A stretch of DNA of 64,000 nucleotides from Gemmatimonadota bacterium (GTDB lineage: Bacteria; Gemmatimonadota; Gemmatimonadetes; Gemmatimonadales; GWC2-71-9). Both the position numbers and the translations under genes were made by a program. Numbering within the stretch: position 1 is the stretch's first letter; each line of letters begins with the position of its first letter. This document shows, in pieces, positions 39,895 to 55,941 of the stretch. The stretch spans positions 88,965-152,964 of the forward strand of contig JAZDCY010000012.1 of NCBI GenBank assembly GCA_036679645.1. The letters are read 5' to 3'. The notes under the pieces were generated by a model. The model saw nothing but the letters and a program-made list of their open reading frames with translations. It did no database searches and was not told the DNA's origin.

Positions 39895-40965
39895 ATGCCA
39901 CGTTGCCGGAACACCGTCGTCGTCGGATTCGCATTCCTTACGCTGGCTGCGGCACCGGCCGCGGCGCAGGCTCAGTTGGCTGACGGTGTCTCCGTGCGTT
40001 TCTCGGGCAGAGTGCAGACGCAGTTCAACACTACGTCGGTTACCGGCGCCTCGAGTACCGAGTTCCTCATTCGCCGCGCCCGGTTGAGTGCAACGGTGAC
40101 CGTGAATGATCTCGTGAGCGGGAAGGTGGATCCCGACTTCAGCGGCGGGAAGATCACGCTCAAGGACGCATACATGAGGCTCAGTTTCGACCCGCGGTTT
40201 CGCCTGACGCTGGGACAGTTCAAGCGTCCGTTCGACCTCTTCGAGTTGACGTCATCGACGCGGATGCTCGTCGTTGAGCGTTCCGGCGGCATCCGCGGCA
40301 TCGACACCTGCGCCGGCCCGGGCGGCATCTGTACACTGAGTCACATGACCGAAAAGCTCCAGTACGCGGACCGCGACATCGGCGTCCTGGCCGACGGACG
40401 TCTCGCCGACGGTATGGTCTCATACGCCGTGTCTGTCACGAACGGCACCGGAGCGAACAGGGAAGACGAGAACGGGAACAAGTCGTTCACCGGACGACTC
40501 ACCGTCGAGGTTGCGCCGAACATCACGATCGGTGGCAACGCCGGTGTGCACGATTATGTGCACCCGACGAGCGGCACCAATCGATACGCCACCGCGTTCG
40601 GGGCGGACGTGGAGATCGGGAGTTTCTCAGAGGGCGTGCACGTGCAGGTCGGGGCAATCGCCGGCGAAAACTGGCAGGTCCCCGTGGGTTCCCAGGACGC
40701 TGCCAATTTCCTGACCGCTCAGGGGATTCTGAGTTACCGCGTCCCCGTCGTCCACCCTTACGTTACCGGCGTCGAGCCTGTCTTTCGTGTGAGTTGGGGA
40801 GATCCGGACACCGACACCGACGGCGACCACGGCCTTCTCTTTACGCCCGGACTGATGCTCCATTTCGAGGGGCGCAACAGGATCGCCGTCAACATGGACA
40901 TCTGGTCTCCCGACAGCGGGGACACCGAGTTCTCGATCAAGGCACAGTCGTTCTTCTTTTTTTGA
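39895..40965 (+). CDS. Outer-membrane porin (phosphate-selective porin O/P-like)
   Basis: Signal peptide ending AAPAAAQAQ, alternating amphipathic beta-strand pattern, RFSGRVQTQFN and LGQFKRPFDL motifs, and a C-terminal aromatic run (SFFFF). Confidence 0.7.
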   Translation: MPRCRNTVVVGFAFLTLAAAPAAAQAQLADGVSVRFSGRVQTQFNTTSVTGASSTEFLIRRARLSATVTVNDLVSGKVDPDFSGGKITLKDAYMRLSFDPRFRLTLGQFKRPFDLFELTSSTRMLVVERSGGIRGIDTCAGPGGICTLSHMTEKLQYADRDIGVLADGRLADGMVSYAVSVTNGTGANREDENGNKSFTGRLTVEVAPNITIGGNAGVHDYVHPTSGTNRYATAFGADVEIGSFSEGVHVQVGAIAGENWQVPVGSQDAANFLTAQGILSYRVPVVHPYVTGVEPVFRVSWGDPDTDTDGDHGLLFTPGLMLHFEGRNRIAVNMDIWSPDSGDTEFSIKAQSFFFF

Positions 40966-40975
40966 AATCGCCGGC

Positions 40976-41803
40976 CTACCGCGGAACCCTCACGGAGACA
41001 CCCGCTCCGACAAACCAATCCTCCGCAGCGGCGTTGAGTCCGACCCCTCCCAAGACATCGAATTGCACAGCCGCAGCTTGCAGGAACGTGATACCGGCAT
41101 CGAGCGAGTGCGCCGTGGCTCTCCCGCCGTTTGCCGGAAGGGTGCCGAACGCTTCGAGGAACGCGCCGACACGATCGGAAAGCCCCGCACCGATAACCGC
41201 CGTGTAGAGAACATCGGCATCCGTCGAGATACCGCCGGCCCCGTCCACCATACCGGTCAGCACGACACCGACGTTTGCGCCCAGTGACACCCGCTCGGAG
41301 AGCGAGTGCGCGGCTGCGAATCTTATCTCGGGAATGACGCGCTCGGCGCGGAACTCCGGCGACCCCGTCGGAATCGTCGCGGTGCCTATGACCGCGACCT
41401 CCGATTGCGAACTCCCGCCCCCCAGCAGTCGGAGCTTCGCCCCCAAGTTGGTGTCTCCGAACCCGGTCTGGTCGCGGTCCACCCCATCGCTCGTCACCGA
41501 CCTCCGCATCCAGCCGCTGACCCCGACGCGGGCCTCGAGCCCGGGCGCCAAACCAACCCTGAACAGTATCTGCGGGACGGCGATCGAGTTCTCCCGCGTT
41601 CCCCCTTGCCGCTCCCCGGCTACGGTGAAACCAGCCTCGAACTGAAAGAACCCTGGCCGTACGACGGTGGGAGACTCCGTCTGGTCCGGACGATCCGTCA
41701 CCAAGGGATCCGGTCGGCCCTGACCCCAGAGAACGGTCATCGGGAGAAAAAGGCTCAGAATTGACCCGATCGTACCGCAAAAAGGTCGCACGTCGCGCTC
41801 CAT
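40976..41803 (-). CDS. Outer-membrane beta-barrel channel (MetA-pathway/transporter family)
   Basis: N-terminal signal sequence followed by the family motif LVTDRPDQTESPTVVRPGFFQFEAGFT. Preferred over the overlapping Arg-rich 340-aa ORF (40758..41780). Confidence 0.7.
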   Translation of the reverse strand: MERDVRPFCGTIGSILSLFLPMTVLWGQGRPDPLVTDRPDQTESPTVVRPGFFQFEAGFTVAGERQGGTRENSIAVPQILFRVGLAPGLEARVGVSGWMRRSVTSDGVDRDQTGFGDTNLGAKLRLLGGGSSQSEVAVIGTATIPTGSPEFRAERVIPEIRFAAAHSLSERVSLGANVGVVLTGMVDGAGGISTDADVLYTAVIGAGLSDRVGAFLEAFGTLPANGGRATAHSLDAGITFLQAAAVQFDVLGGVGLNAAAEDWFVGAGVSVRVPR

Positions 41804-41853: not shown

Positions 41854-43386
41854 TCAATCGGTTGTCAAGCCGGAGCGCCTCAGTTTGCCCCGGTCCACCT
41901 TCCCCAGGTGCGTGCGCGGAAGTGTGGCAAGAAGAACGAACCGACGCGGCACCTTGAAGCGCGCGAGACGCTCACGGACGAAGTTCGCGAGTTCGGCGTC
42001 GAGGTCTGGATGCGCCTCGCCAACGATGAAGGCGTGCGGCCTGATGAGTCCGTGCTCATCCTCGATTCCCACGACCGCTACCTCGTGTACCGCGGGATGT
42101 CGACGCAGGCAGCTCTCGACCTCCTGCGGTGACAACCACTTCCCTGACACCTTCAACATGTCGTCCGCGCGCCCGCAATAGGTCACGTAGCCCTCCGCGT
42201 CGCGGCTGATCATGTCGCCGGACACATACCACTCTCCGCGGAAGGCGGCTCGCGTCTTCTCCATCTGCTGCCAATAGCCAATCGCACGAGAGTCCCCCCG
42301 CACCCAGAGTGCACCGATCTCGCCCGCAAGCACCTCGGTGCCATCGTCGTCACAGACCTTGACGTCGAACCCGGGCACGACCGTACCGAGCGTTCCCGGT
42401 CGCACCTGCCCGGGACGATTGGAGATAAAGATGTGCCACATCTCCGCCGTGCCGAGTCCGTCGAGCAATTCCACTCCGAAAGCCTGCATCCAGCGTTCGT
42501 GCAAGTCAGCAGGCAGCGCCTCACCAGCCGACGTAACGAGGCGCAGCGAGGAAAGGTCGCGCTGGTTTGCGTCCGGCTCGCTCAGCATCTGGTTGATCAT
42601 TGTCGGTACGTTGACCAAGATCGTGGGTCTGAACTCTTCGATTTTCTCGAACAGGCCCGCCGGCGTGCATCGGTCCGGAAAGAGGACCGCTGCCGCGCCT
42701 ACGGAAAAGGGGAAGAACAGGTTCGAGCCGGTGGCATATCCGAAGAAGAGCTTCGGCACGGAGATGGTGATATCCCGCTCCGTGAGGCCGAGCACGCCCT
42801 TTCCATATAGTTCGGTCGTGTTCGCAAATGCGGCGTGGGTCTGTACCACGGCCTTCGGCTGCCCAGTTGTCCCGCCGGAGAAGAGCCAGATTACCGCATC
42901 ATCCCGGTGAGAGGGGAAGGTCTCGAGGTGATCCGACTGTGCCGCCACCCGGTCGTCCCATGCCGGGTCGCCCACTACGACGAGATCGTGGAGATGCCGG
43001 GCGTCACCTGTGGCGGCCGCAAACGTCTTCCGTTGCTCGGTATGTACGATTGCAATCTTGGCGCGCGTGTACTCGAGGAAATAGCCGATCTCTTCCGGCC
43101 GCAGGTACGGGTTGACCATCACCACCACCGCACCAATCTTCACCGTACCGAAGAGCGCGGCGACGAACTCGGGTCCGTCCGGCAGCGCCACGATCACGCG
43201 TTGCTCCGGCTCGACTCCGGTATCACGCAACATGTTGCCCCAACGATTCGCGAGCGAGCGCATGTCGCGGAACGTGAATGTGCCGCGATCGGTGAGCAGT
43301 GCCGGGCGATCGCCTCGACCCTCGCCTATGCGTGCGTCAAGGAAATACTCGGCGATGTTGAACGCTTCCGGTGGCTGGAATGTCAT
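41854..43386 (-). CDS. Aryl-CoA ligase of the benzoate/2-aminobenzoate-CoA ligase family
   Basis: ATG 43386. MTFQPPEAFNIAEYFLD N-terminus typical of benzoate-CoA ligases, AMP motif WLFSGGTTGQPKAV, YVSGDMISRDAEGYVTYCGRADDMLKVSG, and GKVDRGKL. Confidence 0.8.
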   Translation of the reverse strand: MTFQPPEAFNIAEYFLDARIGEGRGDRPALLTDRGTFTFRDMRSLANRWGNMLRDTGVEPEQRVIVALPDGPEFVAALFGTVKIGAVVVMVNPYLRPEEIGYFLEYTRAKIAIVHTEQRKTFAAATGDARHLHDLVVVGDPAWDDRVAAQSDHLETFPSHRDDAVIWLFSGGTTGQPKAVVQTHAAFANTTELYGKGVLGLTERDITISVPKLFFGYATGSNLFFPFSVGAAAVLFPDRCTPAGLFEKIEEFRPTILVNVPTMINQMLSEPDANQRDLSSLRLVTSAGEALPADLHERWMQAFGVELLDGLGTAEMWHIFISNRPGQVRPGTLGTVVPGFDVKVCDDDGTEVLAGEIGALWVRGDSRAIGYWQQMEKTRAAFRGEWYVSGDMISRDAEGYVTYCGRADDMLKVSGKWLSPQEVESCLRRHPAVHEVAVVGIEDEHGLIRPHAFIVGEAHPDLDAELANFVRERLARFKVPRRFVLLATLPRTHLGKVDRGKLRRSGLTTD

Positions 43387-43421
43387 GCGAAGATGATGCG
43401 GTCTGGGGAGACCGGGGGTCA

Positions 43422-44186
43422 ATGCCTGTCCATCACTTGAGTGAGATCACATGGGAAGAGATGCGTGACCTGCCAACGGGCGGGGGCCGCGCGGTCGCGG
43501 TATTGCCCATCGGCGCCCTTGAAGCACACGGACCGCATCTGCCGCTCGGCACCGACGTGATCATTGCCGAGGCAATGGCCCGAGCCGGCGCGGCGCGTTT
43601 GGCCGAGCGGGGCTACACCGTGCTGGTGCTCCCTGCGCTCGCCTATGTGCCCGCCCCCTTTGCTCGCGATTTCCCGGGCACACTGTCGGTTCGGGCTGCG
43701 ACGATGGGCGCTCTGCTCGGTGACATCGCAGAAAGTGTATCGATACACGGGATCACCGTGCTCGCCATCGCGAACGCTCACTTCGATCCCGCCAACGTCG
43801 CTGCAATCAAGCGGGCCATTCACGATGTCGGTTCCCGATGCGATCTCGTCATCGTGTTCCCCGATCTGACATGCCGGAAGCTCGCGGAGCGGCTCACCCC
43901 GGAATTCCAGAGTGGTGCCTGTCACGCCGGCCAATACGAGACCTCCATCGTCCTGGCCGAGCGTCCCGAGACGGTGCGCACGGCAATGTCGAGCCTGCCC
44001 GCTGTGGACATCTCGCTCTCCCGAGCAATCCGTTCGGGGCACACGACATTCGAGGAAGCTGGAGGCGATCGCGCATATTTCGGCGCGCCCGCTGCTGCCA
44101 CGCGTGCAGAGGGAGAGAAGACGGTCCTCGTGCTGGGCGCGATCCTCGAGGAAGCGGTGCAAGCGGAGTTCCCCGATGCGTCTTGA
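43422..44186 (+). CDS. Creatininase-family amidohydrolase
   Basis: ATG 43422. VAVLPIGALEAHGPHLPLGTDVIIAE signature, and HAGQYETS further on. Confidence 0.75.
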   Translation: MPVHHLSEITWEEMRDLPTGGGRAVAVLPIGALEAHGPHLPLGTDVIIAEAMARAGAARLAERGYTVLVLPALAYVPAPFARDFPGTLSVRAATMGALLGDIAESVSIHGITVLAIANAHFDPANVAAIKRAIHDVGSRCDLVIVFPDLTCRKLAERLTPEFQSGACHAGQYETSIVLAERPETVRTAMSSLPAVDISLSRAIRSGHTTFEEAGGDRAYFGAPAAATRAEGEKTVLVLGAILEEAVQAEFPDAS

Positions 44187-44943
44187 GGGTCACACCGCCC
44201 TGATCACGGGCGGCGGCCGGGGAATTGGCGCCGCGACCGCTCGCACGCTGGCGGAGGCGGGTGCCACGATCGTCGTGTCGGCGCGTTCCACGGACGAGAT
44301 CGAGCACGTGGCCGACACGATTCGGAACGGCGGGGGACAGGCGCACGCCATCACCTGCGACGTGACCGATGCGAGCGCCGTGCACGCACTCGCGCGGGAG
44401 GCTGCATCTCGAGTGGGGAGCGTGGACATTCTGGTCAATAACGCCGGGATCGCCAGTTCGTCGCCGTTCGAGCAGCAGACGCTCGACGAGTTCAATCGCA
44501 TCATGGCCGTCAACGCGACCGGCAGCTTTCTCTGCATGCAGGCATTTCTACCGGCCATGCGCGAGGGTGGCTGGGGACGTGTGGTTAACATCGCCTCTGT
44601 CGCGGGGCTCCACGGTGCTCGCTATATCGCGGCGTATGCGGCATCGAAGCACGCGCTGGTGGGTCTCACTCGCGCCGTCGCGGCAGAGTATGCGCAGAGC
44701 GGCGTTACGGTCAACGCCGTCTGTCCCAGCTATGTGGATACGCCGATGACAGATGATAGCATCCTGCGGATCACCGAAAAAACCGGACGCTCTCGCGAGG
44801 AGGTGCTGGCGGCCATCCTGGCGCAAACCGCGCAGGGCCGTCTGATTCAGCCAGACGAAGTCGCGCACGCCGTACTCACGTTGTGTGACGACCGCGCGCG
44901 CGGCATCAACGGCCAGACCATCGTCATCGACGGAGGCGGGTGA
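44176..44943 (+). CDS. Short-chain dehydrogenase/reductase (3-hydroxyacyl-CoA/3-oxoacyl reductase-like)
   Basis: ATG 44176. TGGGRGIGAA, NNAG, and catalytic YAASKHAL. Overlaps the upstream gene by 11 nt. Confidence 0.85.
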   Translation: MRLEGHTALITGGGRGIGAATARTLAEAGATIVVSARSTDEIEHVADTIRNGGGQAHAITCDVTDASAVHALAREAASRVGSVDILVNNAGIASSSPFEQQTLDEFNRIMAVNATGSFLCMQAFLPAMREGGWGRVVNIASVAGLHGARYIAAYAASKHALVGLTRAVAAEYAQSGVTVNAVCPSYVDTPMTDDSILRITEKTGRSREEVLAAILAQTAQGRLIQPDEVAHAVLTLCDDRARGINGQTIVIDGGG

Positions 44944-44947
44944 CCGA

Positions 44948-45361
44948 GTGAGTTTCGAGATCGTCAACCCAAAACTGCTTGGGGTGCCGCGTGGCTGGAA
45001 CAACGGAATGCTCGCGCCCGCGGGCGGGCGTGTCCTCTTCGTCGCGGGACAGACCGCGGGGCACGGGTTGCACGACACACCCGACATCGGGTTCGAGGAG
45101 CAATTCGCGCGCGCCCTCGAGCATGTCATGCACGTGGTCCGCGAGGCAGGCGGCGGCCCGGAGGACATCGGCCGGTTCACCATTTACGTGACCGACATGG
45201 AGGAGTACCGTGCCAGCCTGAAGGCCCTCGGCAGCGTGTACCGGAACATCATGGGGACGCACTACCCGGCCATGGCGTTGGTCGCCGTCACGGCACTCGT
45301 CGATCCGCAGGCACGGGTCGAGATCGAGGCAACCGCGGTCATCTCGGAAAGCCAGTCATGA
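44948..45361 (+). CDS. RidA/YjgF/TdcF (endoribonuclease L-PSP) family enamine/imine deaminase
   Basis: GTG 44948. About 137 aa, with VFVAGQTAGH...PAMALVAVTALVDPQARVEIEATAV, the typical C-terminal signature. Confidence 0.75.
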   Translation: MSFEIVNPKLLGVPRGWNNGMLAPAGGRVLFVAGQTAGHGLHDTPDIGFEEQFARALEHVMHVVREAGGGPEDIGRFTIYVTDMEEYRASLKALGSVYRNIMGTHYPAMALVAVTALVDPQARVEIEATAVISESQS

Positions 45362-46158
45362 CGATTCAAGCCAAATCGTTCCGCTACGAGCACGACACCA
45401 GCACCGGTATTGCCACTATCACGCTCGATCGGCCCGATCGGCTGAATGCCCTGACCTTCCAGGTCTATGAGGAACTCCGCGATACGTTTCGCGCGCTGGA
45501 TACGGAACGCGACGTCCGTGCGATAATCATCACCGGATCCGGGAAGGGGTTCTGTTCCGGCGGCGACGTCGAGGATATCATCGGCGCCCTGTTTGAGCGG
45601 GATTTCGAGGGCCTGTTGGACTTCGCACGGCTGACGTGCGATCTCGTTGCGGCCATTCGTCAGTGCCGGCGTTCGGTCGTGGCCGCGTTGAACGGCACGG
45701 TTGCCGGTGCCGGTGCCGTGATCGCCACGGCGTGCGATATCCGGATTGCGAGCGAGTCGGCCAAGATCGCTTATCTGTTCACCAAGGTGGGGCTATCGGG
45801 CGCCGACATGGGGTCCGCGTGGATGCTTCCCCGAATCGTCGGTCTCGGCGTCGCCACGGAGTTGCTCATGACCGGAGATTTCATCGACGCGAACGAGGCC
45901 CATCGTATTGGCCTCTACAACCGCGTCGTCACGCGTGCCGATCTCATGGCGACCGCAACCGATGTTGCGAACAAACTCGCACGGGGCCCGTCGTTCGCAC
46001 TTGCCATCACCAAGGACTCGCTGAATCGTGAAGCCTCCATGGACCTGGTCGGGGCGCTCGAGGCCGAGGCGCAGGCGCAGGCGGGATGCATGAATCACCC
46101 GAATTTCCGCGAAGCGTACGATGCCTTTGTCGCGAAACGGCCCCCACGGTTCACCTGA
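45358..46158 (+). CDS. Enoyl-CoA hydratase/isomerase (crotonase) family
   Basis: ITLDRPDRLNAL, TGSGKGFCSGGDV oxyanion-hole motif, and ALNGTVAGAGAV. ATGA overlap with the upstream gene. Confidence 0.9.
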   Translation: MTIQAKSFRYEHDTSTGIATITLDRPDRLNALTFQVYEELRDTFRALDTERDVRAIIITGSGKGFCSGGDVEDIIGALFERDFEGLLDFARLTCDLVAAIRQCRRSVVAALNGTVAGAGAVIATACDIRIASESAKIAYLFTKVGLSGADMGSAWMLPRIVGLGVATELLMTGDFIDANEAHRIGLYNRVVTRADLMATATDVANKLARGPSFALAITKDSLNREASMDLVGALEAEAQAQAGCMNHPNFREAYDAFVAKRPPRFT

Positions 46159-46161
46159 CGC

Positions 46162-47310
46162 GTGGTAGCCGACGTCCGTACCGTTCGCGCGTTCCTCGAC
46201 GAATCACATCTTGCGCTCGCCGACGAGCTGGCCAGCTTTTGCGCGAGCGCGTTCGGCAATCGCACGCCACCCCACGACGACGCGTCCGCCCGCGATGAGG
46301 CACGCGAGGCGCTCGAGGTCATTGGACGTGCCGGGTTCTTCCAACCGATCGCAACACAGGATCTCCGGGGTTGTGTATTGAGCCGCGAGGCCCTTGCGGC
46401 GGTCTCTCCTCTGGCCGATGCCGTATTCGCCCTGCAGGCGCTAGGTACCACGCCCATCGTCGTCGCCGGTTCCGACGCGCAGCGCGAACGGTGGCTCGCG
46501 GACATGTTCGCCGGCCGGACAATGGCCGCGTTTGCCATGACGGAATCCGAGGCCGGATCCGACGTGGGCGCCATGACCACGACGGCGACACGCGACGGAG
46601 ACACATACGTCCTCGAAGGAGCGAAGACGTTGATCTCCAACGCCGGGATCGCAGATGTATATACTGTCTTCGCTAGTACGGATCCCTCGCGCGGCCGGAA
46701 GGGAATCAGCTGTTTTCTGGTGCCCGCCGACACACCGGGGTTCAGGTTCGTCGGCCCACAGGTGATGAGCGCGCCGCACCCTCTGGGGGAAATCGCCTTT
46801 GAGGCATGCCGCATCCCCGAGGAAGCGCGTTTGGGCGCCGAGGGCGACGGATTCGGGCTGGGCATGGAGACGCTCGACCGACTCCGTGCGACCGTAGCGG
46901 CGGCAGCCTGCGGGATGGCCGCGCATGCCCTCGACCAGGCATCGCGTCACGCCGCTCGCCGCGAGCAATTTGGAAAGCCACTCGCGGAGTTTCAACTCAT
47001 CCAGGACAAGCTGGCACGCATGGCGATCGATCTCGACGCCGCCCGGCTTCTCACCTACCGGGCCGCGTGGGAAAAAGACGGCGGAGCAGAGCGTGTGACG
47101 CTCGAGTCGGCAATGGCCAAGGCATTCGCAACCGAGGCCGCACAACGCATCATCGACGCCGCCGTTCAGATCTTCGGCGGCCGCGGCGTACTCGCCGATC
47201 ACCCCATCGATCACCTGTATCGTGCCGTTCGAGCACTGCGCATCTATGAGGGGACGACCGAGATCCAACATCTCGTCATCGCCAAACAGATGCTCCGTCG
47301 TGCGACGTGA
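46162..47310 (+). CDS. Acyl-CoA dehydrogenase family
   Basis: [33 protein letters not shown], and C-terminal [15 protein letters not shown]. Confidence 0.9.
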
Positions 47311-49562
47311 AGGTCGCGATTGTAGGCGGGGGACCGGCGGGGCTCTACTTCGCGATCCTGCGCAAGAAGACGCATCCACGCGACGAGATCGTCGTCTACG
47401 AGCGGAACCGTCTCGACGACACGTTCGGGTTTGGCGTCGTGTTCTCCGGCGCCACCGAGGAGGCACTCGCGGGTGCCGATCCCGAGACAGTGGCAGAGAT
47501 GGCCCGGTACGCGGCCCGCTGGGATGACATCGACATTCACTTTCAAGGCGAGTTGTTGAGATCCACCGGGCACGGCTTCAGCGGTCTCTCGCGCCAACGG
47601 CTTCTCGCGATCCTCGCCGCACGATGCGAGCGCTTAGGCGTCGATCTGCGGTTTCAGTGCGACGTATCCGACATCGACACGCTGCGCGACGCCGATCTGC
47701 TGATCGCGGCGGACGGGGTCAACAGCGCCATCCGGGATCGTTTCGCCACGTCTTTCCAGCCCACGATCGATTGGCGTCCCAATCGGTTCGTCTGGTTGGG
47801 GACGACCCGTCACTTCCCCGCATTCACCTTCTATTTCAAGCACAACGACGCCGGACTGTGGCGTGTCCACGCGTATCAGTACGAAGCAGGACACTCCACG
47901 TTCATCGTGGAGACAACGCACGAGACACTCACCGCCACGGAACTCGCCGAGGATGACGAGGCTGCTACTCTGGCTTTCTGCGAACAGCTCTTTGCAGAGG
48001 AACTGGAGGGCCATCCACTGTTGGCCAATCGATCGGTGTGGCGACAGTTCCCTACCGTGCGTAACGCCTGCTGGCATCACGAGAACATCGTGCTCATGGG
48101 CGACGCCGCTCACACCGCACATTTCTCTGTCGGGTCTGGTACGAAGCTCGCCATGGAAGACGGGATCGCGCTCGCACAGGCCCTCGACGCACATGACGAT
48201 GTCGCCACGGCCCTGGGCGCGTACGAAACCCAGCGGCGGCCCGCAGTCGAGAGCCTACAGCGTGCCGCGCAGGTCAGCCTCGAATGGTTCGAGGACACTG
48301 AACGCTACATGAACATGGAGCCAATACAATTCGGATTCAATCTCCTGACCCGTAGCTTCCGCATCACGCACGACAATCTGAAGGTGCGCGACCCCGAGTA
48401 CATCGACTGCGTCAACACGTGGTTTGCCGCGAAAGCGTCCGACCAATCCGGAGTTGATAGCGCGATGGCGCAGCCGGCACCTCCTCCATTATTCACGCCC
48501 TTTCGTCTGCGCGACATGCTGCTCGACAATCGGGTGGTTGTATCCCCAATGTGTCAGTACTGCGCCGAGGATGGAACGCCAAACGATTGGCATCTCGTCC
48601 ACCTGGGCAGCCGGGCCATCGGGGGCGCAGGCCTCGTCATCACGGAGATGACCGATGTCAGCCGGGAGGGCCGGATTTCTCCCGGCTGCGCCGGGATGTA
48701 CAAGCCGGAGCACGTTCCGGCATGGGCGCGTATAGTGGACTTCGTGCATGCGAACAGCAACGCCAAGATCGGCATACAGCTCGGGCATGCGGGCCGCAAG
48801 GGGGCCACGCGGCTCGCCTGGGACGGAATGGATGAGCCACTCGACGACGCCGCATGGCAGATCATCTCCGCATCTCCGCTCCCATATCTCCCTCGGAGCC
48901 AGGTTCCCAGGGAGATGACGCGAGCGGACATGGACATCGTACGCGACGACTTCGTTCGCGCGGCGGAGATGGCCAATGAGGCGGGGTTCGACATGCTCGA
49001 AATCCACTTCGCCCACGGGTACCTGCTGGCAACTTTCGTGTCACCGCTCACCAACCGGCGCACGGACGAGTACGGCGGGACGCTCGAGAATCGTCTCCGA
49101 TTCCCGCTCGAGGTATTCGACGCCGCGCGCGCCGCCTGGCCGCAACACAAACCCATGTCCGTCCGCATCTCGGCGGTGGACTGGGCGCCCGGGGGTATGG
49201 AGGAAGGGGACGCGGTCGAGGTAGCGAGTTTTCTCAAGGCACACGACTGCGATATTGTCGACGTGTCCGCCGGACAAACCGTCGCCGATCAGCAACCCGT
49301 CTTTGGCCGTCAATTCCAGACACCGTTCAGCAATCGTATCCGTCACGAAGCTCAGATCGCCACACTAGCTGTCGGGAACATTTCATCGTACATGGACGTG
49401 AACACGATTCTCGCAGCTGGGCGTGCGGACCTGTGCGTGCTCGCCCGCGCACACCTGTGGGATCCCTACTGGACCCGCCACTCCGCGTACACGCTCGGGT
49501 ACGGTTTGCCGTGGCCAAATCAGTACGAGTCACTAAACACGTACACCCCACGCTTCGAGTGA
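47307..49562 (+). CDS. Bifunctional aryl-CoA monooxygenase/reductase: FAD monooxygenase + Old-Yellow-Enzyme domain (2-aminobenzoyl-CoA monooxygenase/reductase or salicylyl-CoA 5-hydroxylase type)
   Basis: N-terminus [16 protein letters not shown] with [22 protein letters not shown] (flavoprotein hydroxylase). C-terminal OYE motifs ([44 protein letters not shown]). GTGA overlap with the upstream gene. Confidence 0.8.
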
Positions 49563-49571
49563 GGGGATGAT

Positions 49572-50354
49572 ATGACGCAGACGTACTGGAGTTATCTCAA
49601 GGTCGACGAACTGCTCTCGCTGCAGGAACCCGTGTCGGATGGACCCGAACACGATGAGATGCTCTTCATCATCATCCATCAGGTCTACGAGCTTTGGTTC
49701 AAGGAGGTGCTGCACGAGATCGACTACCTCAAGCAGCGCTTGATTCACAACGAGACACCTCGCGCGCTTCACACGCTCAAGCGAGTGCTCACGATCTTCA
49801 AGACGCTCGTTGCGCAGATAGATATCCTCGAGACGATGACTCCCCTCGAGTTCATATCGTTCCGCGACCGCCTGGACACGGGTAGCGGCTTTCAGTCGTT
49901 CCAGTTCCGCGAACTCGAATTCGTGCTGGGCAACAAGAACGCGCAGGCCATCGAGCGCTATCCGGCGGGTCACGCCGGCCGTGTTCGCCTGGAACGGCGC
50001 CTGCGGGAGCCGACGCTGTGGGACGCGTTTCTCCGCTACCTCGACGCGAACGGCTACCGAGCGGAAGAGGACGTGACGGAGCGTGATGTTACGCTCCCAA
50101 TTCAACCGTCTCCTTCCACGCAGCGAATCCTCATCGACATCTACCGGAACGATCCCAGCGTGGCTGCCCTGTGCGAGCGATTGCTCGATCTCGATGAGGG
50201 GCTGCAGGAATGGCGCTATCGCCACGTGAAGATGGTGCAGCGCACGATTGGCACCAGAAAAGGCACGGGTGGCTCGGCGGGCGCAGATTATCTGAAGAGC
50301 ACTCTGTTCACCCCCACCTTCCCGGATCTGTGGGAGATCCGTACCGAGCTGTGA
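49572..50354 (+). CDS. kynA: Tryptophan 2,3-dioxygenase
   Basis: YWSYLKVDELLSLQ, HDEMLFIIIHQVYELWFK, FRDRLDTGSGFQSFQFRELE, and RHVKMVQRTIGTRKGTGGSAG motifs of bacterial TDO. Confidence 0.9.
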   Translation: MTQTYWSYLKVDELLSLQEPVSDGPEHDEMLFIIIHQVYELWFKEVLHEIDYLKQRLIHNETPRALHTLKRVLTIFKTLVAQIDILETMTPLEFISFRDRLDTGSGFQSFQFRELEFVLGNKNAQAIERYPAGHAGRVRLERRLREPTLWDAFLRYLDANGYRAEEDVTERDVTLPIQPSPSTQRILIDIYRNDPSVAALCERLLDLDEGLQEWRYRHVKMVQRTIGTRKGTGGSAGADYLKSTLFTPTFPDLWEIRTEL

Positions 50355-50397
50355 TGCCTGCGTACCAACGCGGCTCGGTTCTCGCCCGCACGCTAGG

Positions 50398-51603
50398 ATG
50401 AGTATTAGACCGAACAAACTGTACGGTAGCCCGAACACGCTCGCACCCCACTACTCCCGCTTCCGCGTGAGCGAGCGGCTTCTACTGACCGGTCACTCAC
50501 ATCAGGCGTGGCCCGACGCCGGCTTTGCCGGCCAGGTAGAGGCATGGGAGGACGCCGCGCACCTGGTGGACGACAAGTGGGAGCGCGCTTTCGCAAAAGC
50601 CGAGCGGGTCCGCACCGGTTGGAGACAGTTGCTCGGCGACGACGACGGCGACATCACGCTCGGTACCAGCACGCACGAACTGGTCGCGCGTTTCCTCTCG
50701 GCGCTGCCGCTGCGCACGCGCCCGCGCATCGTGACGACGGACGGTGAGTTCCACACCATTCGCCGTCTGGTAGACCGACTGGCGGAAGAGGGCATCGAGA
50801 TCGTCAAGGTAGCCAGCGACTCGGCCGCACAGTTATCTGAACGGCTCACCGCCGCCATCGATGATCGCACGGCGGTCGCAATCGTATCTGCCGTGTTGTT
50901 CCGCAATGCGCACATCGTGCCCGGCCTCGCGGCCGTTCAGCAAACGTGCACACGGCACGGCGTAGAGCTTCTCGTCGATGCGTACCATGCGCTCGACGCG
51001 ATTCCCTTCGATCTGCACGACGAGCGGCTCACCGGGGCCTTTGTGGTCGGCGGGGGATACAAGTACTGCCAGTTGGGCGAGGGCAATTGCTTCCTGCGGG
51101 TTCCCGCCGCGTGCTCATTGCGCCCCGTCATCACCGGATGGTTCAGCGAGTTCAGCGCTCTCGATGAGGCAGAGGCCAATGGCCACGTGGCGTACGGTAC
51201 CGGAGCAGACCGCTTCGCAGGCGCGACCTACGATCCCACGAGCCACTACCGCGCAGCAGCCGTCTTCGAGTTCTTCGCCACCCACGGTCTCAGCCCTGCG
51301 TTGCTACGGGAGGTGAGTCGGCATCAGATTGGTGTGTTGGCTGAAGCTTTCGACGCGTTGGACCTCCCACCGACGGTGATGTCCCGCGATTCCGAGACGC
51401 CGCTCGACCGGGTTGCCGGATTCATGGCGCTGCGCGGCGCGCAGGCCGGGGAGATCTCGCGCGCCCTGCGTGCCCGGGACGTGTACACCGACTCTCGTGG
51501 CGATGTCCTCCGCCTAGGGCCGGCCCCCTATCTGACCGATCGGCAACTCCGCGATGCCGTCGGCGCGCTGGGCGAGGTGGCTGCACCACCTCGCGTGCCT
51601 TGA
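50398..51603 (+). CDS. Kynureninase-like PLP-dependent hydrolase (class V aminotransferase fold)
   Basis: LLVDAYHA, and VVGGGYKYCQLGEGNCFLRV resembling the kynureninase PLP-lysine region (xxSYKYLNGGPGxxAFLxV). It directly follows kynA. The assignment is less certain than for kynA. Confidence 0.6.
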   Translation: MSIRPNKLYGSPNTLAPHYSRFRVSERLLLTGHSHQAWPDAGFAGQVEAWEDAAHLVDDKWERAFAKAERVRTGWRQLLGDDDGDITLGTSTHELVARFLSALPLRTRPRIVTTDGEFHTIRRLVDRLAEEGIEIVKVASDSAAQLSERLTAAIDDRTAVAIVSAVLFRNAHIVPGLAAVQQTCTRHGVELLVDAYHALDAIPFDLHDERLTGAFVVGGGYKYCQLGEGNCFLRVPAACSLRPVITGWFSEFSALDEAEANGHVAYGTGADRFAGATYDPTSHYRAAAVFEFFATHGLSPALLREVSRHQIGVLAEAFDALDLPPTVMSRDSETPLDRVAGFMALRGAQAGEISRALRARDVYTDSRGDVLRLGPAPYLTDRQLRDAVGALGEVAAPPRVP

Positions 51604-51704: not shown

Positions 51705-52523
51705 TCACCGGGATTCCAGGGACGCCCGTACGGTAACTTGCATCGTCATTGGCCCGGGAAGCATGGCACCCACGGAGATCATCGACATGGCGAACTCGTT
51801 GCGAACCCAGCGACCCGCATCGAGATCGATATCCATCTCGCCCTGCACGGTCCCCGACGACTCCATCGCCACGCCGCCTACTTGCGTCGATCGCATCGTC
51901 TGTGAAACCGTGCCCGCCACCGAGATGATCGCGTGCCGCGCGCCATCTTGGATCTCCACGCGGACGAGGCCATAGCGGAGGTTCCGTACCATCTCCATCT
52001 CCATCGAGGCGCCCTCGAGGGACATGGTCACGGTGCTCGTGTCCACCCAGCTGGCGCCGGGCTCGACAGGATCTTCCGGTAGGTGCACCGCCGCCGGCAT
52101 CGACTGTTCCATGCTACTCTTCATCTGCTCGAGCAACGGGTTGTCCCCCCCATCGGGGAAGGTCGTCTCGAGCACACGCCCGCGCGTGTCCATGCGCATC
52201 CGCGAGCGGAGGCCACGCAGCAGGTCGGCGGCCGCTCCCATTGCCTGCGCTGCCGGTCCATCTCCATCGAGGCCGATCGAATCGACCACCACGTCCACGA
52301 CGCGCGTATCGCCCTCGACTGACACCACCGTCTGCGACACCAGCATGAGCTGCACGCTCGAGAACTGGCCCGCCCCGGCCGCATCTACCGATGTCTCTGT
52401 TTCGATTCTGTAGTGCGAGACCTGGCCCGCCGGAGGCAGCAGCCGCAAGAGAATGATCTGCTCCTGCGCCACCGCGGACGAGCATACGAGCAACGTCAGG
52501 ACTGTGACAAGACGACTTGGCAT
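51705..52523 (-). CDS. Hypothetical secreted protein
   Basis: Signal peptide MPSRLVTVLTLLVCSSAVAQE, 272 aa, coding-like composition, no family recognised. Confidence 0.6.
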   Translation of the reverse strand: MPSRLVTVLTLLVCSSAVAQEQIILLRLLPPAGQVSHYRIETETSVDAAGAGQFSSVQLMLVSQTVVSVEGDTRVVDVVVDSIGLDGDGPAAQAMGAAADLLRGLRSRMRMDTRGRVLETTFPDGGDNPLLEQMKSSMEQSMPAAVHLPEDPVEPGASWVDTSTVTMSLEGASMEMEMVRNLRYGLVRVEIQDGARHAIISVAGTVSQTMRSTQVGGVAMESSGTVQGEMDIDLDAGRWVRNEFAMSMISVGAMLPGPMTMQVTVRASLESR

Positions 52524-52629
52524 TCACCCTCCGCGATCGGGCGATAGAATCTGCCCCATTTCAACCTCCGACGCCAACGCGCTAGCTTTCCCGGCTTCTG
52601 CCAGATCCACCTCGTCACGTGAGGACTCC

Positions 52630-53466
52630 ATGAGCGACTTCGACATTGCGAGATTGCTGCAGACCGTCACCGACCTGACAGCCGCCTGGGGCCTCAAGGC
52701 CCTCGGGGCGCTGGTCGTGCTGTTCGTCGGCCGCAGCGCCGCCCGTTGGGCACGCCGTATCACACGGACGGCGTTGCAGCGCGGGAACACCGACCCCACG
52801 CTCGTGCCGTTCATCTCATCGCTCGTGTACTACCTGCTACTGGTGTTCGTCGCCGTGGCCGTCCTCGGCATGGTGGGGATACAGACCGCGTCGATCATCG
52901 CCGTACTCGGGGCAGCCGGTCTCGCCGTCGGATTCGCTCTGCAGGGTACCCTCTCCAACCTCGCCGCCGGCGTCATGCTGCTCATCTTCCGGCCCTTCAA
53001 AAACGGTGACTTCATCAAGGCCGCGGGTACCTCCGGCACCGTCGAAGCCATCGGGATTTTCACGACCCTGCTCAAGACACCGGACAACGTCGCGATCATC
53101 GTGCCCAACGCGAACGTCTGGGGCGACACGATCAAGAACTACGCTGTGAACGACACACGCCGCATCGACCTCGTCATGGGAATCGGCTACGGGGACGACA
53201 TCCAACGCGCGATCAACACGATCCAGGGCGTCCTGAACGCGGACGACCGCGTGTTGCAGGATCCGGAAGCGGTCGTCGCCGTCAACGAGCTGGCCGATTC
53301 TTCGGTGAATTTGGTAGTGCGCCCGTGGTGCAGACGTGAGGACTATGGAGCACTCCGCTGGGATCTCATCCGCGCGCTCAAAGAGCAGCTCGAGGCAGCC
53401 GGCTGCAATATCCCTTTCCCTCAGCGAGACGTGCACCTCCATCAAGCCTCCACGTCGGCGGCCTAG
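52630..53466 (+). CDS. Small-conductance mechanosensitive channel (MscS family)
   Basis: ATG 52630. Three TM helices followed by LSNLAAGVMLLIFRPFKNGDFIKAAGTSGTVEAIGIFTTLLKTPDNVAIIVPN. Confidence 0.9.
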   Translation: MSDFDIARLLQTVTDLTAAWGLKALGALVVLFVGRSAARWARRITRTALQRGNTDPTLVPFISSLVYYLLLVFVAVAVLGMVGIQTASIIAVLGAAGLAVGFALQGTLSNLAAGVMLLIFRPFKNGDFIKAAGTSGTVEAIGIFTTLLKTPDNVAIIVPNANVWGDTIKNYAVNDTRRIDLVMGIGYGDDIQRAINTIQGVLNADDRVLQDPEAVVAVNELADSSVNLVVRPWCRREDYGALRWDLIRALKEQLEAAGCNIPFPQRDVHLHQASTSAA

Positions 53467-53477
53467 GAGATTGTCAG

Positions 53478-54143
53478 ATGCGTATCACATTCTTCGGCCA
53501 CGCCGCCTTTGCGCTCGACGATGGAACGCATACGCTCGTGATCGACCCGTTTCTCTCCGGGAACCCGGTTGCGACCACCAAGCCGGGCGACGTGCGTTGT
53601 ACCCACATAGCGCTCACGCATGGACACGAAGACCATATCGGAGATACCGTGACGATCGCCAAGGCCAACGATGCCACCGTCATCGCCGCCTTTGAGATCT
53701 GCAACTTCGTGAGTCAAGAGGGCGTTGCACACACGGAGCCCGGGAATCCTGGTGGGAAGATCGACACACCCTTCGGCTGGGTCGCCTTCACGCAGGCCTT
53801 TCACTCATCCTCGTATCAGGGCCGGTACATGGGCATGCCGTGCGGGTTGGTCGCCCGGATTGGTGGGAAGACCATCTACCACTGCGGAGATACCGCCCTC
53901 TTTGGTGACATGCGGCTGTTGGGCGAGATCTACCAACCGGACGTCGCCTGCATTCCGATCGGTGATCGGTTCACGATGGGACCCGCTCTTGCGACGCGGG
54001 CAGCGGAGCTGATCGGCGCACCGGTGGCGATACCGATTCACTACAACACGTGGCCCCCGATCGAGCAGGATCCCGCACAGTTCAGGCCCAAGGGTGTCGA
54101 GGTCAAGGTAATGGAGCCGGGAGACGTGTGGCAGTTGAACTAG
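53478..54143 (+). CDS. Metal-dependent hydrolase, metallo-beta-lactamase fold (UPF0173-like)
   Basis: MRITFFGHAAF and THIALTHGHEDHIGD (HxHxDH), 221 aa. Confidence 0.8.
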   Translation: MRITFFGHAAFALDDGTHTLVIDPFLSGNPVATTKPGDVRCTHIALTHGHEDHIGDTVTIAKANDATVIAAFEICNFVSQEGVAHTEPGNPGGKIDTPFGWVAFTQAFHSSSYQGRYMGMPCGLVARIGGKTIYHCGDTALFGDMRLLGEIYQPDVACIPIGDRFTMGPALATRAAELIGAPVAIPIHYNTWPPIEQDPAQFRPKGVEVKVMEPGDVWQLN

Positions 54144-54174
54144 CGCACCGTACCGCACCACACATAGCGGTCGT

Positions 54175-55155
54175 GTGCGCTCGCTGACGGTCAGCGCCGA
54201 GTCGTGGCCGCTGCACTCGCCCTTCACCATCTCGCGCGGATCCCGCACCGCGGCCGACGTGGTCACCGTCACCCTCGAAGAAGCCAACGACATCGGTCGA
54301 GGGGAGTGCGTTCCCTACCGCCGGTACGGTGAGACCATCGAGGGAGTCGTCACGTCGATCCAGCGACTCGAGGCGGAGGTAGCCGCCGGTCTCGACCATG
54401 AGGCGCTCGCAAACGTCCTACCTCCCGGCGCCGCGCGCAACGCGCTCGACTGTGCCCTGTGGGATCTCGAGGCAAAGCGAACCGGCCGGCGCGTGTGGGA
54501 CCTCGCCGGCCTCGAGACGCCGCGACACATCACGACGGCATTCACGATCAGTCTCGAAACGCCAGATGCCATGGAGACCGCCGCGCGTGCCGAGGCCGCG
54601 CGTCCGCTCCTCAAGCTGAAGCTGGGTGGCACGGACGACGTCGAGCGCGTCCGGCATGTTCGGACCGCAGCACCGGGTGCCCGGCTCATCGTCGATGCGA
54701 ACGAGGCGTGGCGGCCGGACGACGTGGCCGCACGGCTGCAGGCATTGGCAGGTCTGGGAGTGGAGTTGGTCGAGCAACCACTCCCCGCCAGCGAAGATGA
54801 AGTGCTCGACCGCGTTCCGCATGCCGTCCCGATCTGTGCGGACGAGTCTTGCCACACGAGCGCAGACGTTGCGTCGCTCGCGGGCCGGTACGACTACGTG
54901 AACATCAAGCTCGACAAGACCGGCGGGTTGACCGAGGCGCTGCGCCTGGTCGGTGCCGCGCACACACACAACATGGGGATCATGGTTGGTTGCATGATGG
55001 GAACGTCACTGGGAATCGCACCCGCGCTACTCGTGGCCGCGGCCGCAGAATACGTCGACCTCGATGCACCATTGTGGCTTGCCGAGGACCGCACGCAATC
55101 ACTCCAGTACGCGGGCAGCGTGGTCGCGCCGGCCGGTCCGGCAGTCTGGGGGTGA
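54175..55155 (+). CDS. Dipeptide epimerase (enolase superfamily, L-Ala-D/L-Glu epimerase-like)
   Basis: LKLKLGG, IVDANEAW, VEQPL, CADES, and NIKLDKTGG motifs with the usual metal-ligand and catalytic-lysine spacing. Confidence 0.8.
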   Translation: MRSLTVSAESWPLHSPFTISRGSRTAADVVTVTLEEANDIGRGECVPYRRYGETIEGVVTSIQRLEAEVAAGLDHEALANVLPPGAARNALDCALWDLEAKRTGRRVWDLAGLETPRHITTAFTISLETPDAMETAARAEAARPLLKLKLGGTDDVERVRHVRTAAPGARLIVDANEAWRPDDVAARLQALAGLGVELVEQPLPASEDEVLDRVPHAVPICADESCHTSADVASLAGRYDYVNIKLDKTGGLTEALRLVGAAHTHNMGIMVGCMMGTSLGIAPALLVAAAAEYVDLDAPLWLAEDRTQSLQYAGSVVAPAGPAVWG

Positions 55156-55941
55156 GGGCGAGCTGAGAACCTTTCGCTCGAGCTCCAACAACAGCCGCTT
55201 GCGCCAGACACCACCGCCGTATCCCGCGAGCTGACCGTTGCTCCGCACGACACGGTGACACGGAATCACGATCGCAAGGCGATTATCGCCGTTCGCGCGG
55301 CCTACCGCGCGCATCGCTCCCGGGCGCCCAACCGCGGTGGCCTCGTCGGCGTAGCATCGCGTTTCTCCGTATGGCACGGTCCGCAAGTAATCCCAGCACT
55401 GCTCCTGGAACGGCGTCCCCGGTGCGACCATGGGAACCGTGAACTGCCTGCGCGCCCCGGTGAAGTACTCCGCCAGCTCGCGGTCGAGATGTGACAGGTG
55501 TTCGTGCTCGCCCGGGACCGGTGTGAGCGCAAACCGTCGGCGGATTTGGACGATCTGCCGTTCCAACATTCGCCGATCCGCAAACTCGAGGAGGCACACT
55601 CCATCATCCGTGGCGCCTGCGACCATGGGTCCCAGCGGTGTCAAGAAACGCGTTACCGCGATCGTCTCGGACCCGCGTGCCCGACCCGGCGTGTCGCCAA
55701 ACAACTTGGCAAAGGCATCGCGAAACCCGCTCAGCGATTCATACCCATGGTCGTACGCCGCGCGCGTAAGGTCGTCGCCGACGCGCAGGCGTCCCATCGC
55801 CTGCCCCAATCGCCGCGCTCGCAGGTACCCGTGGAAGGTCATGCCGTGATGCCGTCGAAACCAGCGTCTGACACGTCCCGGATCGACACCGACCGCTCGC
55901 ACGGACGCGTCGGTCCAGCGGCGCGCGGGCTCGTCATCCAC
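55099..55941 (-). CDS. AraC-type HTH + methylated-DNA--protein-cysteine methyltransferase (Ada-like, lacking the N-terminal Zn domain)
   Basis: HTH_AraC (WFRRHHGMTFHGYLRARRL...GYESLSGFRDAFAKLFGDTPG) followed by an MGMT domain with active site IPCHRVV. Start is GTG 55941. The 3' end overlaps the convergent epimerase gene by 57 nt. Confidence 0.8.
   Translation of the reverse strand: MDDEPARRWTDASVRAVGVDPGRVRRWFRRHHGMTFHGYLRARRLGQAMGRLRVGDDLTRAAYDHGYESLSGFRDAFAKLFGDTPGRARGSETIAVTRFLTPLGPMVAGATDDGVCLLEFADRRMLERQIVQIRRRFALTPVPGEHEHLSHLDRELAEYFTGARRQFTVPMVAPGTPFQEQCWDYLRTVPYGETRCYADEATAVGRPGAMRAVGRANGDNRLAIVIPCHRVVRSNGQLAGYGGGVWRKRLLLELERKVLSSPSPPDCRTGRRDHAARVLE

Follow-up and report, generated by a model that had tools for sequence, protein, structure and literature searches.

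A gene cluster of Gemmatimonadota that joins tryptophan dioxygenase and a divergent kynureninase homologue to a probable 2-aminobenzoyl-CoA pathway, with a creatininase-family candidate aryl formamidase

We analyzed a stretch of 64,000 nucleotides from a Gemmatimonadota bacterium (contig JAZDCY010000012.1 of assembly GCA_036679645.1, forward strand, positions 88,965 to 152,964), called here the window, whose G+C content is 60-67% throughout. Our subject is a nine-gene cluster, delimited using the open reading frame (ORF) table and family scans, in which a ligase gene on the minus strand (41854-43386) stands opposite an eight-gene array on the plus strand (43422-51603). This array encodes, in order, a creatininase-like protein; a short-chain dehydrogenase/reductase (SDR); a RidA-family protein; an enoyl-coenzyme A (CoA) hydratase (ECH); an acyl-CoA dehydrogenase (ACAD); a fusion of a flavin adenine dinucleotide (FAD) monooxygenase with an old yellow enzyme (OYE), i.e., the monooxygenase/reductase (MO/R); a tryptophan 2,3-dioxygenase (TDO); and a kynureninase-like protein. 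The question that it raises is by which enzymes, and notably by which formamidase, tryptophan could be led into the 2-aminobenzoyl-CoA pathway. The features of the cluster are listed below; L-numbers, used where needed, denote the loci fetched for comparison.

41854..43386, minus strand: aryl-CoA ligase, candidate anthranilate-CoA ligase (TIGR02262, 502 bits vs cutoff 375)
43387..43422, minus strand: divergent intergenic region with ligase promoter-like element (TTGACC-18-CATCAT at 43422-43393)
43422..44186, plus strand: creatininase-family binuclear-metal amidohydrolase, candidate aryl formamidase (PF02633, 173 bits)
44176..44943, plus strand: SDR of the lower pathway (adh_short, 219 bits)
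44948..45361, plus strand: RidA-family protein without the canonical Arg105 (PF01042, 64 bits)
45358..46158, plus strand: crotonase-family enzyme, the ECH (NF006107, 372 bits vs cutoff 330; ECH_1, 196 bits)
46162..47310, plus strand: ACAD (Acyl-CoA_dh N, M and C domains)
47307..49562, plus strand: FAD-monooxygenase::OYE fusion of 751 aa, the MO/R (NF006101, 1131 bits vs cutoff 1078; FAD_binding_3 and Oxidored_FMN)
49572..50354, plus strand: TDO of the KynA type (PF03301, 217 bits)
50398..51603, plus strand: divergent kynureninase subfamily member, pyridoxal phosphate (PLP)-dependent, fold type I (KYNU_C, 25 bits; Aminotran_5)

The original prediction, made from the letters alone, had described a ligase facing an eight-gene array with several overlapping junctions. 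Indeed, all nine ORFs lie at the coordinates listed above, every family assignment held, and both the ORF table and the sequence bear out the overlaps: the stop codon of the creatininase-like gene (44184-44186) overlaps the SDR gene, which starts at ATG 44176, and two further overlaps take the form ATGA at 45358 and GTGA at 47307. Of the seven junctions of the plus-strand array (-11 to +43 nt), three overlap, and spacing this tight suggests a single transcription unit. For the creatininase-like gene, ATG 43422 is the most likely start, so that only 35 bp separate it from the start codon of the ligase gene (ATG at 43386). The RidA-family gene most likely begins at GTG 44948 and not at 44885, just past the SDR stop and with GGAGG upstream. 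In the related loci L001-L003, the start codons of the ligase and creatininase-like genes are 14 nt apart. On the ligase strand of the window, a sigma-70-like promoter, TTGACC-18-CATCAT, leaves about 6 nt between the end of its -10 element and the ligase ATG, suggesting that the ligase mRNA is leaderless or nearly so, and its -35 box overlaps the creatininase-like ATG. The TTGAC-N17/18-(C/T)ATCAT layout is kept in many orthologous loci (L012, L017, L022, L026, L034, L040, L046, L058, L075, and others).

The last two genes of the array had been called kynA and kynureninase-like, and both names proved well chosen. The TDO matches bacterial structures over its full length (2NOX, 8e-58; 2NW7, about 1e-58); the distal HQxxELW and proximal WRxRH motifs and the heme and substrate residues all align, which places the protein in the TDO family. 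Against TIGR03036 it scores 281 bits, under the equivalog cutoff of 391, and is thus a divergent member. For the kynureninase-like protein (family models TIGR01814 / PF22580), the NCBIfam kynureninase model gave no match, the KYNU_C score of 25.3 bits stays under the cutoff of 27, tblastn against the Bradyrhizobium KynU gave no match, and a single-sequence PDB search returned no kynureninase, its best hit being a cysteine desulfurase (6e-4). A profile of 28 homologues matches the Pseudomonas fluorescens kynureninase 1QZ9 end to end (6e-15, cysteine desulfurases following at 1e-5), and 1QZ9 is also the best fold match of the AlphaFold2 model (predicted local distance difference test, pLDDT, 81; template modeling, TM, score 0.79). 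Moreover, K222 in GGGYKY (GGGYKYCQLGEG), D194/H197, and R372 are invariant and align with the catalytic residues of 1QZ9. We take the counterparts of K222, D194, and R372 to be K227, D201, and R375, i.e., the PLP lysine, the aspartate, and the substrate arginine. Annotation sources name the relatives of this protein either "kynureninase" or "selenocysteine lyase". Judged by its profile and its predicted fold, the product of the last gene is a remote yet genuine kynureninase homologue, belonging to a subfamily missed by standard models.

The ligase has an AMP-binding domain and passes the benzoate-CoA ligase family model (TIGR02262). Among solved structures, it is closest to 4WV3, an anthranilate-CoA ligase (3e-120), with benzoate-CoA ligases ranking behind. 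Its identity is only about 35% with the AbmG-type ligase of Burkholderiaceae, and 46% with a Streptomyces ligase whose gene adjoins TDO and kynureninase-like genes. As predicted, the 751-aa fusion is a monooxygenase/reductase homologue: the NF006101 match spans residues 1-743 and exceeds the family cutoff, the N-terminal FAD monooxygenase and the C-terminal OYE are both present, and the protein is 54-56% identical to Ralstonia, Caballeronia, and Streptantibioticus homologues. NF006101 covers both anthraniloyl- and salicylyl-CoA monooxygenase-reductases, and its NCBI name is "bifunctional salicylyl-CoA 5-hydroxylase/oxidoreductase". That name, and the inclusion of benzoate and hydroxybenzoate ligases in the ligase family, would suit a cluster degrading salicylate or another ortho-substituted benzoate via a salicylyl-CoA 5-hydroxylase, with the TDO and kynureninase-like genes as mere neighbors. 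We consider this very improbable: these two genes point the same way as the rest of the array, follow it at short spacing, and recur with the cluster in other loci; neither a gentisate dioxygenase nor a gentisyl-CoA thioesterase turned up in family scans of the locus; all such clusters keep a candidate deaminase of the RidA family; and the solved structure nearest to the ligase is that of an anthranilate-CoA ligase. Genomic context favors 2-aminobenzoyl-CoA over salicylyl-CoA as the substrate of the MO/R.

The other genes of the lower pathway have counterparts in abm-type clusters. SDR homologues about 45-55% identical are found in those of Caballeronia and Ralstonia, and the Burkholderiaceae cluster enzymes are about 48% (ECH) and 47-49% (ACAD) identical to those of the window. 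In Ralstonia solanacearum (CP047137.1, L007), an unannotated SDR homologue, broken across two frames, lies between the MO/R and MarR genes (14534-15113); it is probably either a pseudogene in that strain or a gene omitted from the PLSDB table. The crotonase (45358-46158) would be an enoyl-CoA hydratase or possibly a ring-opening hydrolase, and it is only conditionally that we infer particular steps for the SDR, the crotonase, and the ACAD. The RidA-family protein calls for a caveat to the earlier reading. It scores 44.5 bits against the canonical RidA model TIGR00004 (cutoff 106) and belongs to the wider Rid family only (PF01042). Canonical RidA is a 2-iminoacid deaminase, whose Arg105 binds the substrate carboxylate. 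Where it has "YPARAVV", the window protein has "YPAMALV", and the orthologues carry Met or Thr at the Arg105 position (window, L001, L005, L007, L009, and L176), so this protein is not a standard RidA. The Arg-less Rid proteins form one orthologous group common to Gemmatimonadota, Burkholderiaceae, and low-GC clusters. The loss of Arg105 fits a substrate whose carboxyl is held as a CoA thioester, i.e., the enamine product of the MO/R, and, from its sequence, this Arg-less protein is a likely candidate for the hydrolytic deaminase of an enamine CoA ester. Hydrolytic deamination after the MO/R step also agrees with the CoA esters of anthranilate-grown Arthrobacter, which are consistent with hydroxyanthraniloyl-CoA and cyclohexanedione-carboxyl-CoA (PMC3534580).

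The first gene of the array encodes a member of the creatininase family (PF02633, 173 bits vs a gathering threshold of 31.3, residues 25-253 of the long ORF). In the numbering of the Pseudomonas putida creatininase, the reference residues are the metal ligands Glu34, His36, Asp45, His120, and Glu183 and the catalytic His178. The active site is intact: the corresponding E34, H36, D45, H120, and E173, together with the catalytic H168, are invariant in 35 homologues. The AlphaFold2 model (pLDDT 93) has the creatininase fold, with 3LUB, 3NO4, 1Q3K, and 1J2T as best Foldseek matches (TM 0.70-0.76). The protein is not a creatininase proper (creatinine amidohydrolase, EC 3.5.2.10), because it scores 77 bits on the equivalog TIGR04448 (cutoff 235) and, in the alignment to 1Q3K, does not conserve the creatinine-binding Trp154 and Trp174. 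It also stays under the cutoff for the mycofactocin peptidase MftE (TIGR03964, 91 bits vs 172), family scans of the neighborhood found no mft genes, and the model of IolN, the ring C-C hydrolase of the family, matches weakly (28 bits). The subfamily is marked by the signatures GA[VIL]EAHGPH and SGACHAG[QR][YF]E and by an invariant Cys beside the catalytic His, and relatives of the protein occur in at least 575 species genomes. The original prediction had invoked the archaeal formamide hydrolase ArfB as a precedent within the creatininase family; this is correct, and the family includes a second characterized formamide hydrolase, the Sinorhizobium BrbF (SMc02977) (PMC9478397).

The distribution of the cluster was established by searching for homologues of the creatininase-like, MO/R, and kynureninase-like proteins, among the closest 120 matches each (57-93% identical, Gemmatimonadota where named), distant contexts being taken from a plasmid collection and a representative library. 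In all, 79 genome loci and 80 metagenome loci were compared, with a tblastn matrix for gene content. About 100 loci have the cluster; most belong to Gemmatimonadota, and some are binned as Acidobacteriota, Planctomycetota, or Eisenbacteria. The gene set is found at 52-75% protein identity in most of the genome loci and many of the metagenome loci; hence, the arrangement is not due to chance. Creatininase-like homologues 52-62% identical occur in the 79 genome loci, again mostly of Gemmatimonadota with some Acidobacteriota, Planctomycetota, Eisenbacteria, and "delta proteobacteria". According to the tblastn matrix, most loci of sufficient length for a judgement have all nine genes, and in 18 of 26 well-flanked genome loci, the creatininase-like gene is accompanied by those for the ligase, the MO/R, and the TDO or the kynureninase-like protein. 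In metagenomes, the kynureninase-like gene has the TDO gene immediately upstream in 45 of 52 cases.

The set also occurs in parts. In L020, the ligase gene diverges from a creatininase-like-TDO-kynureninase-like series that is followed by an IS1595 transposase, with no lower genes; likewise, L012, L040, and L108 have TDO, kynureninase-like, and ligase genes diverging from the creatininase-like gene and no lower genes. In L015 (Acidobacteriota), the order is creatininase-like-SDR-RidA-TDO-kynureninase-like, the ligase and MO/R genes being absent nearby. The Burkholderiaceae loci (Ralstonia L007 and Caballeronia L009) hold the MO/R, SDR, ECH, ACAD, and RidA genes with the ~35% identical ligase, and no creatininase-like, TDO, or kynureninase-like gene was found in these clusters. 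On a contig of 46.6% GC (L176), the order is MO/R-SDR-ECH-ACAD-RidA-ligase-creatininase-like-kynureninase-like; the creatininase-like protein is there only 35% identical to that of the window, keeps the subfamily signature, and its gene directly abuts the kynureninase-like one. An Embleya TDO locus and a Nonomuraea ligase locus have only that single gene of the set each. The simplest reading of these gene contents would be two modules: a lower one (SDR, RidA, ECH, ACAD, and MO/R), which is also present in Proteobacteria, and an upper one (TDO, creatininase-like, kynureninase-like, and ligase), which is also found alone as a compact four-gene set. Since the Burkholderiaceae clusters lack precisely the creatininase-like, TDO, and kynureninase-like genes, these three appear as an add-on, which would match the three reactions from tryptophan to anthranilate.

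Taken together, the cluster very probably runs from tryptophan via anthranilate to 2-aminobenzoyl-CoA, followed by dearomatization. The anthranilate reading of the original prediction is upheld by the 4WV3-like ligase, the MO/R that passes NF006101, the full-length TDO, and the genuine, if remote, kynureninase homologue. This leaves the loss of the formyl group. The prediction had also asserted that neither a KynB-type nor an alpha/beta-hydrolase formamidase is present. The first part stands: translation of the 64-kb window and of about 175 fetched loci in six frames gave no instance of the KynB motif HxGTHxD, and the cyclase family PF04199 has no match among the cluster proteins. As neither PF04199 nor HxGTHxDxPxH is found, our claim for the creatininase-like enzyme is that it works like a KynB-type formamidase and not that it is a member of that class. 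The second part holds for the window, where ten further ORFs of formamidase-like size yielded no candidate, but it may not hold for all relatives: in L015, an alpha/beta-hydrolase gene (14550-15449) directly follows the kynureninase-like gene and could encode an alternative formamidase. A Pfam scan of the neighbors of stand-alone ligase/creatininase-like and TDO/kynureninase-like pairs found no other formamidase; these neighbors are unrelated (sulfatases, serpin, glycosyltransferases, TetR, and others). With four upper genes for the four reactions from tryptophan to 2-aminobenzoyl-CoA, the creatininase-like protein would be the formamidase by subtraction. Circumstantial support comes from the whereabouts of its gene, which is missing from the Burkholderiaceae clusters that have no TDO and kynureninase-like genes, accompanies these genes in the compact upper sets, and adjoins the kynureninase-like gene in the distant lineage of L176. 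Hence, we lean slightly towards its being an aryl formamidase (EC 3.5.1.9), on the grounds of genomic context and family precedent, acting on N-formylkynurenine or else on N-formylanthranilate. Literature searches returned no report of a creatininase-family kynurenine formamidase, and nothing relevant on an anthraniloyl-CoA monooxygenase together with a kynureninase.

Several observations besides the L015 hydrolase weigh against this assignment. The search for the KynB motif covered the window and the fetched loci only, so that a kynB or AFMID-type gene may lie elsewhere in these genomes. N-formylkynurenine also loses its formyl group slowly without enzyme. A Streptomyces set with a ligase gene divergent from TDO and kynureninase-like genes (the latter 60% identical) is devoid of any creatininase-like gene, and several TDO/kynureninase-like pairs stand alone with no creatininase-like gene nearby. 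The tightest unit is the divergent ligase/creatininase-like pair, adjacent in 54 of 61 loci, so that the most constant partner of the creatininase-like gene is the ligase and not the TDO; in six loci, this pair is found alone among unrelated genes. In L102, a TetR gene diverges from ECH-ACAD-MO/R-TDO-kynureninase-like genes without the creatininase-like one. Lastly, the creatininase-like protein is fused in single ORFs to RidA in L004 (4403-5581), L086 (10001-11215), and P0364, and to the SDR in P0365 and P0512. These fusions tie it just as much to the lower pathway, so fusion evidence points to whichever gene is downstream. ORF P0474 (L176, 10001-11977) joins the creatininase-like and kynureninase-like proteins. 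We considered it as Rosetta-stone proof and downgraded it to a possible assembly artefact: the MO/R and ECH genes of that contig are split by frameshifts and the fusion junction holds an A5 run, so adjacency alone was counted.

The constancy of the ligase/creatininase-like pair is what consecutive steps would predict, and it leads to a first alternative, in which kynureninase would cleave N-formylkynurenine into N-formylanthranilate and alanine, and the creatininase-like enzyme would then deformylate N-formylanthranilate for the ligase. Formylanthranilate is listed in KEGG both as a kynureninase product and as an arylformamidase substrate, which speaks for this order, as do the remoteness of the subfamily from canonical KynU (no tblastn and no NCBIfam match), the Streptomyces cluster that has the same kynureninase subfamily without any formamidase, and the loci L041 and L016, where a kynureninase-like gene (33-34% identical) lies beside a ligase gene facing the creatininase-like one, without TDO. 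Gene adjacency is, however, a weak guide to reaction order, and the kynureninase-like protein has lost neither the Arg nor the PLP Lys nor the Asp that ordinary kynureninases possess. We regard this swapped order as unlikely. The same degree of doubt applies to the idea that, in a re-ordered N-formylanthranilate route, the SGACHAG[QR][YF]E subfamily, acting with an equally divergent kynureninase subfamily, would constitute a third, non-orthologous class of aryl formamidases, besides the KynB cyclase and alpha/beta-hydrolase types, although such a route would account for the close tie of the hydrolase gene to the ligase gene and not to the TDO gene.

Another part of the data draws the creatininase-like enzyme towards the lower pathway, the formamidase being then encoded elsewhere or dispensable. 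In the commonest layout, its gene heads the SDR-RidA-ECH-ACAD-MO/R block; the single-ORF fusions are to RidA and SDR; in L019 and L086, it accompanies lower genes with no TDO or kynureninase-like gene within reach; and its family holds the ring C-C hydrolase IolN, weak as the match to that model is. We doubt that it acts there, because the Burkholderiaceae clusters for the lower pathway have no creatininase-like gene, L102 has ECH, ACAD, MO/R, TDO, and kynureninase-like genes without it, and, conversely, it is found in the four-gene upper sets and in the ligase pairs with no lower genes within 6-10 kb.

The lone ligase/creatininase-like pairs, found in loci binned as Planctomycetota, Longimicrobiales, and a "delta proteobacterium", could also be explained by a broader amidase, which would supply the ligase with anthranilate, or with some other aryl acid, by cleaving N-acyl or amide conjugates and would not be specific to tryptophan. 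A precedent exists in quinaldine degradation by Arthrobacter, where an N-acetylanthranilate amidase precedes the anthranilate-CoA ligase (PMC3534580). This is quite improbable in our view, as most loci also hold TDO and kynureninase-like genes, and the ligase/creatininase-like and TDO/kynureninase-like halves may be split within one genome.

We thus return to the creatininase-like enzyme as deformylase. On balance, it is more probable than not that the locus is a catabolic operon pair leading from L-tryptophan to ring-reduced, deaminated CoA esters, with this enzyme removing the formyl group. The proposed sequence would be the following. TDO (49572-50354) would form N-formylkynurenine, from which the creatininase-family metal hydrolase (43422-44186) would take off the formyl group. 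The divergent kynureninase (50398-51603) would then yield anthranilate and alanine, and the divergently transcribed ligase (41854-43386) would form 2-aminobenzoyl-CoA, the presumed substrate of the MO/R (47307-49562), a candidate 2-aminobenzoyl-CoA monooxygenase/reductase. In the sixth and last step, the Arg-less RidA-family protein, the SDR, the crotonase, and the ACAD would deaminate, open, and beta-oxidize the ring. We infer every substrate in this scheme, and the formamidase role above all.

Around the cluster, the gene directly downstream of the ligase encodes an outer-membrane channel:

40976..41803, minus strand: Phenol_MetA_deg-family outer-membrane channel (PF13557, 74 bits)

It has its own promoter-like site at 41848-41819 (11/12 matches). 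A homologue stands beside the ligase only in L017 and at a greater distance in L054, and we therefore rejected this channel as a conserved member of the cluster; it may be an accessory component for aromatic uptake. On the other side, the kynureninase-like gene is followed, after 0.85 kb, by a gene for an MscS-type mechanosensitive channel (52453-53466). In L017, a copy with 66% identity (16956-17795) separates the TDO and kynureninase-like genes, which makes this channel gene either a recurrent neighbor or a coincidence. The surroundings (37742-39139, 39895-40965, and 53478-55941) encode a HAMP/HisKA histidine kinase, a phosphate-selective-type porin, a metallo-beta-lactamase (MBL)-fold hydrolase, a mandelate racemase/muconate-lactonizing-enzyme family protein, and an Ada-like AraC/methyltransferase. 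These surrounding genes do not belong to the conserved cluster, next to which there is no dedicated regulator.

The formamidase is the step of bacterial tryptophan catabolism most often missing in genome reconstructions. If the role of the subfamily is confirmed, more than 575 species genomes would gain an assignment, the majority belonging to uncultured Gemmatimonadota of soils and sediments and some to Acidobacteriota and Planctomycetota, and EC 3.5.1.9 would be given a third enzyme fold. The cluster also brings together, in a small set of genes conserved across many loci, candidates for the poorly characterized steps after the 2-aminobenzoyl-CoA monooxygenase/reductase, among them the Arg-less Rid-family protein as the probable deaminase of the enamine, and it sets apart a kynureninase subfamily outside the standard models.

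Compared with known systems, the metabolic link itself is not new. The abm pathway with its fused monooxygenase/reductase is established (reviewed in PMC4539516), and Cupriavidus genome reconstructions already route tryptophan via kyn genes and abmG into it (PMC8879955). What appears to be new is that the two routes are fused at the level of an operon, in Gemmatimonadota and in uncultured lineages allied to them, with a ligase of other ancestry, a kynureninase subfamily missed by standard models, and a creatininase-family formamidase candidate. The cluster shares with the abm systems of Azoarcus evansii and the Burkholderiaceae (Ralstonia, Caballeronia, and Cupriavidus) the FAD::OYE MO/R, an aryl-CoA ligase, a crotonase, an ACAD, an SDR, and the Arg-less RidA. 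It differs from abm-type clusters by its ligase, which at about 35% identity to the AbmG type is nearer to the actinomycete ligase encoded beside TDO and kynureninase-like genes; by the absence of a MarR regulator and of a thioesterase; and by the TDO, kynureninase-like, and creatininase-family genes built into the operon. With the KynA-KynB-KynU pathway it has in common a full-length KynA-type TDO and a homologue of kynureninase with the PLP Lys, Asp, and Arg in place. However, KynB (cyclase family) is lacking in the window, the kynureninase is of a remote subfamily, and anthranilate would be passed to a CoA ligase instead of an anthranilate dioxygenase.

The closest parallel to the upper genes outside these catabolic clusters is in an enediyne-type cluster of Streptomyces goshikiensis (L091, plasmid NZ_CP115938.1, 111309-115009), where the ligase gene likewise diverges from TDO and kynureninase-like genes (46%, 48%, and 60% identical, respectively). 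The setting there is biosynthetic, with neither a creatininase-like gene nor a lower pathway, and this cluster also holds a chromoprotein, a tyrosine 2,3-aminomutase, and an FkbO-type chorismatase. The triad indicates that the kynureninase subfamily also serves secondary metabolism, with no formamidase gene adjoining it there. As for the creatininase-like protein, it resembles the P. putida creatininase (1J2T/1Q3K) in its fold (TM about 0.75), metal ligands, and catalytic His, and departs from it by an identity of about 25%, the loss of Trp154 and Trp174, and the replacement of Glu122 by Asp. ArfB and BrbF belong to the same Pfam family, and the likeness is one of family and chemistry, i.e., the predicted hydrolytic removal, at a binuclear metal center, of the N-formyl group from aromatic or heteroaromatic amines. 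Their substrate is a formylaminopyrimidine nucleotide, whereas the one proposed here is N-formylkynurenine or N-formylanthranilate, and the window protein belongs to a subfamily with a signature of its own. If our assignment is right, the creatininase family, with ArfB, BrbF, and this subfamily, would look like a general scaffold for the hydrolysis of aryl formamides.

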